A stretch of 47,415 bases of DNA, from assembly GCA_947623665.1 (NCBI GenBank), contig CANQHJ010000003.1:1-47415 (forward strand), given 5' to 3'. The DNA comes from an uncultured Bacilli bacterium (GTDB lineage Bacteria; Bacillota_I; Bacilli_A; RF39; UBA660). Made by a program: the position numbers and the translations under genes. The notes beneath the pieces were generated by a model. The model saw only the letters and a program-made list of their open reading frames with translations. It searched no databases and was not told where the DNA came from. This document shows, one piece after another, positions 41,672 to 41,909 of this stretch; the stretch's first letter is position 1; every line of letters starts with the position of its first letter.

Positions 41672-41868
41672 AAAAAGAAAGAAAATCATTTCTTCTTTCT
41701 GATTATATTTAGTAATAATCATCTTCCTTTTATTATTACTATTTATAGTTTTAAAATAAAAGATTCCACCTAACTCAGCAATGATTTAGGTGGATGCCAA
41801 AAATTACGGCAACACTCAACATGATCATTATTAAGTGTTCCTTTTTATTTTATTCAAGTTTCCTTGAT
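41672..41868 (-). ncRNA. Candidate highly structured small RNA of unknown family
   Basis: Own TGnTATAAT promoter (41883-41875); GAAA-tetraloop hairpin; four-way junction; further 10-bp hairpin; terminator with U tract. Confidence 0.55.
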
Positions 41869-41909
41869 AGATACATTATAACATAGTTTTTGTTAATAAG
41901 ATGTTAATT

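Follow-up and report, generated by a model that had tools for sequence, protein, structure and literature searches.

The feature lies in the intergenic region between uppP and tkt in the window, meaning the whole stretch of 47,415 nucleotides that was analysed, which belongs to the genome referred to here as G000. The upstream neighbour uppP (41910..42734, minus strand) is identified by a TIGR00753 match above cut-off. The tkt gene (39650-41631, minus strand) has its own extended -10 at 41656..41664, recognised from its sequence on the same strand, and is read as two frames of 228 and 383 aa with a one-base gap at ~40963 relative to the continuous frame of the sister-species genome G001; this split is either an assembly error or a recent pseudogene. 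On the minus strand between the two genes, an extended -10 of the form TGnTATAAT (41875..41883) is preceded by a -35 box (41894..41899) that is eroded, with one base changed and a spacer 4 nt shorter than in the aligned G001 ortholog and intact parent module. Downstream of this promoter, a predicted antitoxin sRNA of ~116 nt extends from 41868 to ~41753 and is matched by our covariance model from 41749 to 41868 with 103 bits. Both of its ends are predicted, the 5' end being placed 7 nt past the -10 and the 3' end at the U-tract that follows hairpin H4. Homology begins at query position 26 in many matches of a DNA search.

The RNA, read on the minus strand, comprises a 5' hairpin H1 (TCAAG-GAAA-CTTGA, 41854..41867), a nearly invariant A-tract (41842..41852), hairpin H2 (41808..41841, the hairpin as first named spanning 41839-41811), a short variable hairpin H3 (41795..41811) that is seen in the MFE structure and is not a consensus helix, and H4 with its U-tract (41753..41794, the hairpin itself spanning 41794-41765). 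H4 and its U-tract form the predicted antitoxin terminator, which a simple terminator scan did not call. Further downstream, a U-tailed hairpin (41666..41700, minus strand) lies outside the RNA family and is likely the native uppP terminator; it is absent from the intact parent module and from two further intact modules in the alignment. A junction of hairpin and promoter similar to it was noticed at G000:C14:~1008-1059.

The plus strand of the same region harbors a broken gene for a hydrophobic peptide, which was overlooked in the preliminary description and which explains the architecture of the locus. Translation and alignment place the 3' remnant of this candidate toxin gene at 41704..41759, with its TAA stop codon at 41757-41759 overlapped by the U-tract of H4. 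Nothing is left of the promoter, SD and start codon of this gene, and the frame that ends at 41759 is interrupted by a stop codon at 41700-41702. The remnant is followed by what, from the corresponding position in 137 parsed intact modules, is the 3' UTR and terminator of the peptide mRNA (41760..41851), antisense to H2-H4; H1 is located outside the predicted overlap with this mRNA. On this strand the A-tract reads as the U-tract of the mRNA terminator, and H2 as its terminator hairpin, which is the target of the 5'-3' long-distance helix of the mRNA. A length of ~190 nt had been given to the RNA, which is too long, since the model match ends at 41749 and positions 41704-41759 are the peptide-gene remnant on the opposite strand. 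The perfect 10-bp hairpin described at 41710-41741 is present, but it belongs to this remnant and not to the RNA.

The preliminary description had presented the region as a structured, promoter-headed, minus-strand RNA outside the known Rfam families and separate from tkt, and in these respects it holds. All the sequence elements that it named were found where it had placed them, and a 241-nt stretch folds far more stably than its shuffled versions, with z = -6.25 when read on the minus strand and -5.99 on the plus strand. In the homologue alignment the wobbles of H2 are U-G on the minus strand, in keeping with the proposed polarity, a TAnnnT box occupies the -10 position in 188 of 190 copies, and tkt has the extended -10 of its own. 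An Rfam scan returned the tRNA-Gln(CTG) at 23769-23843 as the sole gathering-level match in the window and, for the RNA, only sub-threshold noise at E<=10; PGK, SNORD124 and IsrM were rejected, their scores being far below threshold.

Which helices hold up was assessed on an alignment of 71 homologues, the same copies from which the covariance model was built. H2 is 89.7% paired and H4 97.3%, with two-sided changes in 10/12 and 7/8 of their pairs, respectively. H1 is paired in 72% in an alignment where some rows sit one column off, and takes the GNRA form in 131/190 copies, while the loops are hypervariable across copies. Covariation in this alignment supports H2 and H4, but neither the outer stem nor the loop-loop helix that had been proposed to build a four-way junction. 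The outer stem, of which the A-tract would be the 5' arm, does form together with the junction in the MFE structure of the window copy if the transcript reaches 41753. Across the homologues it is only 59.7% paired, however, without covariation between the A-tract and the 3' tail. The A-tract also shows no cognate preference, pairing with its own tail at -2.9 kcal/mol and with the tail of another copy at -3.0 kcal/mol, and in RNAs ending 8 nt past H4 an outer stem of at least 5 pairs is found in 6 of 190 copies. The apparent stem is best seen as a by-product of two facing terminators, since the A-tract is the U-tract of the mRNA terminator and the U-tract of the RNA overlaps the peptide stop codon. 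The kissing loop must be abandoned, its helix being paired in 48.9% and the AATGAT motif occurring in the H2 loop of 1/190 copies, the window copy itself. The suggested switch involving the terminator was judged wrong.

We searched for further copies of the RNA by DNA search and with the covariance model. Many strong matches starting just past the -10, often several per genome, were found by DNA search of 61 genomes, and the model revealed 12 copies in G000 and copies in at least 79 of the 150 further genomes examined from its bacterial family, with up to at least 14 in a single genome; these family counts are lower bounds because 24 candidates were scored per genome. The model detected no RNA in 137 genomes that represent other families of the class, nor in 148 non-family genomes drawn from a phylum sample with partial overlap, nor in one genome of a sister family. 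Most of the named records with the motif are bins of uncultured Bacilli or 'Tenericutes', Ca. Ventrenecus among them, and we take these to belong to the order RF39. Altogether ~190 distinct copies were collected, and 42 of 201 are in tandem; the copies are kin, so that all these counts overstate independence. Literature searches on toxin-antitoxins and small RNAs of RF39/UBA660 brought up no description of the family; one may exist in T1TAdb, in the novel-ORF supplement of PMC2887945 or in catalogues of structured RNAs from microbiomes.

The distribution of these copies bears on the choice, left open in the preliminary description, between a standalone sRNA, which was the correct branch, and an attenuator. 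A cis-acting riboswitch or attenuator that controls tkt through the four-way junction and kissing loop could draw on the junction in the window-copy MFE and on a divergent copy upstream of tkt in another genus (the orphan at L037:1124-1241 in G018, between lexA and tkt). Apart from that copy, the element lies 5' of tkt at only 2 of 30 fetched tkt loci, and the other copies, both the remaining ones in G000 and those adjacent to tRNA genes, adjoin unrelated genes. Together with the unconserved outer stem and kissing helix, the hypervariable loops, the lack of an Rfam match and the separate tkt promoter, this largely refutes the attenuator, to which we give almost no credence.

What accompanies the RNA is, instead, the peptide gene. 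In 120 held-out copies (130 found, 10 dropped for short flanks), an antisense SD followed by a hydrophobic ORF of 18-45 codons ending near the RNA 3' end was observed in 95 cases, against 9/120 in a same-strand control and 8/81 in an upstream control; the count is 94/118 once copies identical to the training set are removed. Intact modules comprise two convergent genes whose transcripts, the peptide mRNA and the RNA, overlap by ~100 nt at their 3' ends. The peptides are 22-30 aa long, with a basic N-terminus and a hydrophobic core; the median mRNA length is 231 nt across the 137 parsed intact modules, and 105 of these have a TATAAT -10 before the peptide gene. No toxin match was obtained for 37 peptides in Pfam and NCBIfam at E<=1, where membrane matches were at chance level only. 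The peptides match nothing beyond chance in PHROGs and yield no usable match in the ESM Atlas, where recognition is low, and 0 of 10 looked up are present in a collection of 15 billion proteins.

Decay of the modules is asymmetric. Among 190 RNA copies, 45 are without an intact ORF, whereas a full RNA partner stands beside 36 of 38 matches found toxin-first; of the two partnerless ones, the first lies at the edge of its contig, and in the second both the -10 and the SD are damaged. From this toxin-first search only the partner count is used, since its tally of intact ORFs took up spurious 3' UTR frames in several rows. Orphans closely resemble intact copies, the -10 being kept in 43/45 and H2 scoring 0.91 in both groups. 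The keeping of promoter and stems fits a retained function, but the comparison is biased, as similarity of the RNA was the criterion by which copies were retrieved. From the layout of the locus and from this asymmetry, in which the ORF is often lost and the RNA almost never, we take the peptide to be a candidate toxin that the RNA would neutralise. It is highly probable that the feature is a ~116-nt sRNA of an uncatalogued repeated family, likely a type I antitoxin, with an overlapping antisense peptide gene that is broken here.

A comparison with known type I systems, drawing on PMC3834814, PMC4147584, PMC8309996, PMC5367252, PMC6562991, PMC8594479 and PMC2887945, places the family more precisely. 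The class is described in PMC8594479 as having mRNAs of 150-400 nt that encode hydrophobic peptides of 20-60 aa. The intact relatives fall within these sizes, which the window copy, with its broken ORF, does not. The antisense RNA, at 116 nt, lies within the 60-200 nt of the class and has its own predicted promoter and terminator (-10 in 188/190 copies, H4 and U-tract), its transcription being predicted; SD sequestration and 5'-3' long-distance pairing are indicated computationally, by covariation and folding. The closest resemblance is to bsrG/SR4 of Bacillus subtilis, as reported in PMC3834814 and PMC6562991: convergent genes with a 3' overlap of ~100-120 nt, an antitoxin of four hairpins with the 5' one outside the overlap, and a toxin mRNA whose 5' and 3' regions form a long helix. 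When the antitoxin binds there, this helix opens, the 5' end is released and the SD hairpin becomes more stable, its stem growing from 4 to 8 bp (PMC3834814), an effect demonstrated for bsrG/SR4 and predicted here in 64 of 69 modules. The two differ in the length of RNA (116 vs 180 nt) and peptide (22-30 vs 38 aa), in a terminator that lies outside the long helix in bsrG and is predicted to be consumed by it here, and in a covarying triple repeat that permits a second fold here. Unlike bsrG/SR4, the family is not on a prophage here and is present in 12 copies in G000, and the BsrG model RF01412 scores 16.6 (E 0.074) and 14.8 bits on the toxin-mRNA strand against a gathering threshold of 55.

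Other known systems share some of these features. The pairs bsrE/SR5 and txpA/RatA of B. subtilis and sprG/SprF of S. aureus are also convergent and 3'-overlapping, with small membrane peptides and SD sequestration, and show no family match to these peptides or this RNA; RatA and SR5 act by degradation only, without the SD refolding predicted here (PMC6562991). Like the present modules, par (Fst/RNA II) and Fst/Ldr loci have convergent RNAs and repeats common to the antitoxin and the toxin 5' region. At Fst loci, however, both RNAs use a common terminator, and repression relies on DRa/DRb pairing at the 5' end (PMC4147584), whereas two terminators and full 3' complementarity are found here. 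The Fst/Ldr motif APXXXGXXX (PMC8309996) is absent from all 37 aligned peptides, which give no profile match either. The family is thus an uncatalogued one of type I layout, outside the BsrG/SR4 and Fst/Ldr families.

Predictions for intact modules point to SR4-like control of the peptide mRNA. Across 137 modules the duplex between the mRNA 5' and 3' regions amounts to -33.6 kcal/mol for cognate, -22.9 for non-cognate and -12.5 for shuffled pairs, and the pairing holds inside each of 6 subfamilies with differing motifs. The cost of opening the SD, in equilibrium predictions, is 6.4-7.0 kcal/mol in the nascent mRNA, 4.0 at full length and 6.6 when the 3' end is masked; masking the 3' end as if bound is predicted to relock the SD in 64 of 69 modules, this sample being every second one of the 137. 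With a shuffled 3' UTR the cost is 7.0 against 4.2 with the real one, an effect seen in 31 of 35 modules; the control set of 9 genes covers a wide range (0.3-8.1). We propose that during mRNA synthesis a local hairpin would keep the SD locked. Once transcription has terminated, the 5' UTR would be bound by the 3' end of the mRNA, at the expense of the terminator hairpin; the anti-SD would thereby be drawn away and translation become possible. Pairing of the antitoxin with the mRNA 3' end would then free the 5' UTR and relock the SD, and the resulting duplex would be a substrate for RNase III, the gene for which is encoded in the genome. An alternative mRNA fold may also exist, since a second 5' motif matches a nearer repeat just past the stop codon (-13.0 vs -6.5 across subfamilies); this match is seen in 5/6 subfamilies, the value for the RKSEK subfamily being clipped by the cut-off used.

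These locks on translation also weigh on a different view of the same antisense pair, in which the peptide would be a small regulator in the membrane that is not toxic and whose level the RNA adjusts. That the peptides match no toxin family is in line with it. Several predicted locks on one short ORF, a pattern of decay in which the ORF often disappears and the RNA hardly ever does, and the lineage-restricted tandem duplication argue against it, and we regard a harmless regulator as improbable. A toxin controlled by its antisense RNA remains our preferred reading.

The window copy itself can be traced to a parent module that is intact in G001. Between its remnant (41704-41756) and the last part of the intact parent ORF in that genome the identity is 91%. 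The RNA of the window copy shares 90% identity with the G001 module, compared with 73% for the closest G000 paralogue. A toxin-first profile yielded 11 strong matches in G000, and these accompany, one by one, the 11 remaining RNA copies, which makes the window copy the only orphan in this genome. At the syntenic rpoD-flanked site, G000 retains only the promoter and H1 of the parent, the remainder having been cut out between short repeats. This scar (G000:C5:~33991-34070; L075:1992-2071) lies beside a different intact copy that is missing from G001. The reverse situation was encountered at G000:C15:14683 (L071), where the peptide gene is intact, and at its ortholog G001:C18:5209 (L034), where it is deleted. 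The window RNA is predicted to bind the missing parent mRNA with a ddG of -50.7 kcal/mol; by comparison, predicted values for cognate RNA-mRNA pairs are -72 to -112, and among the 10 of 11 resident G000 toxin mRNAs tested, the best value is -19.2 and the nine others range from -0.3 to -8.1.

We envisage that a copy inserted itself downstream of uppP, ahead of the uppP terminator, and then lost the 5' half of the toxin gene, that the orphan RNA was still able to act in trans on the parent toxin, and that the parent module was later deleted from G000. The window copy is probably, on this inferred course of landing, toxin loss and parent deletion, a decaying orphan that outlived its target, although the sequence of events, with the orphan arising before the parent was deleted, is drawn from just two genomes, both incomplete (G000 is ~91% complete). 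Co-option as a trans-acting sRNA with host targets, or as a working uppP terminator, would agree with the retention of the copy at the same site in the sister species with unchanged H1, H2 and H4 stems, with the abundance of intact-looking orphans, and with the second function reported for S. aureus SprF1 in PMC8309996. The erosion of the -35, which affects the G000 copy, where the matching toxin is gone, and not the G001 ortholog, and the weak predicted binding to the resident toxin mRNAs speak against it, and we think co-option very unlikely.

The surroundings of the modules offer some leads on their spread. A same-strand tRNA gene is present within 175 nt upstream of 49/188 copies, compared with 0/125 on the toxin side and 2/258 ordinary promoter regions. 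A conserved arm of ~27 nt with a small hairpin was seen after the CCA of different tRNAs (L003, L014, L138, L139, L147 and others). The same arm occurs at prophage edges in 6 viral contigs (L362-L367), once before a serine recombinase, and none of these six carries the module. The arm is possibly the end of an undescribed tRNA-targeting element. That the module forms the end of a resident integrative element was rejected, no repeated tRNA end being found within 20 kb at 15 tRNA-adjacent loci (a scan in which the wrong tRNA was picked in one locus), and the two nearest ORFs at each of the 15 loci included no integrase match at E<=1e-12. Searches of a plasmid collection gave no match, those of a phage collection one chance match of 62 nt, and two IMG/VR motif scans 0 and 3 matches, none of the latter with profile support; delivery by mobile elements is a lead only.

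Individual neighbourhoods were recorded as well. A three-copy tandem array (G000:C19:10737-14060; L072) follows RNase III and RNase J genes and precedes a HerA-like ATPase gene. A radical-SAM gene at L073:2893-3501 (G000:C26), ~1.2 kb from a module, has the prokaryotic viperin family as its best match, below cut-off (134 vs 180 bits, N-terminal part). The copy at L073:~1590-1720 (G000:C26:4605-4715) apparently lacks H1 and keeps its -10 and an intact peptide gene, which suggests that H1 may be dispensable. Orphan copies L017, L035 (~1005), L051 and L063 (~1146) are followed by stretches that, by eye, we take to be T-box-leader-like.

A joint reading of these observations, which we put forward tentatively as a possibility we would not bet on, is that of a lineage-wide type I family with a folding timer, spread at tRNA ends and retention of orphans. 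One 5' UTR motif, repeated twice in the 3' UTR, would pair with the near copy first, with the SD locked, and then flip to the distal copy, with the SD loosened, and the toxin would be armed only after termination. Modules would spread through integration hot spots at tRNA ends, and orphan antitoxins, the window copy among them, would be kept because they disarm incoming modules and allow a resident toxin to be lost.

The window copy alone is of modest interest, being probably a decaying orphan. The family adds a well-supported candidate type I system with a ready RNA model and ~190 distinct copies, hosted by a lineage of abundant uncultured gut bacteria with genomes of ~1 Mb, and suggests that SR4-type refolding control recurs in an RNA without detectable sequence link to SR4. 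Its divergent paralogues, predicted not to cross-react, would be useful as orthogonal RNA switches. Finally, the pair of sister species offers a natural illustration of the way in which a toxin module may be lost from a genome while an orphan antitoxin provides cover.
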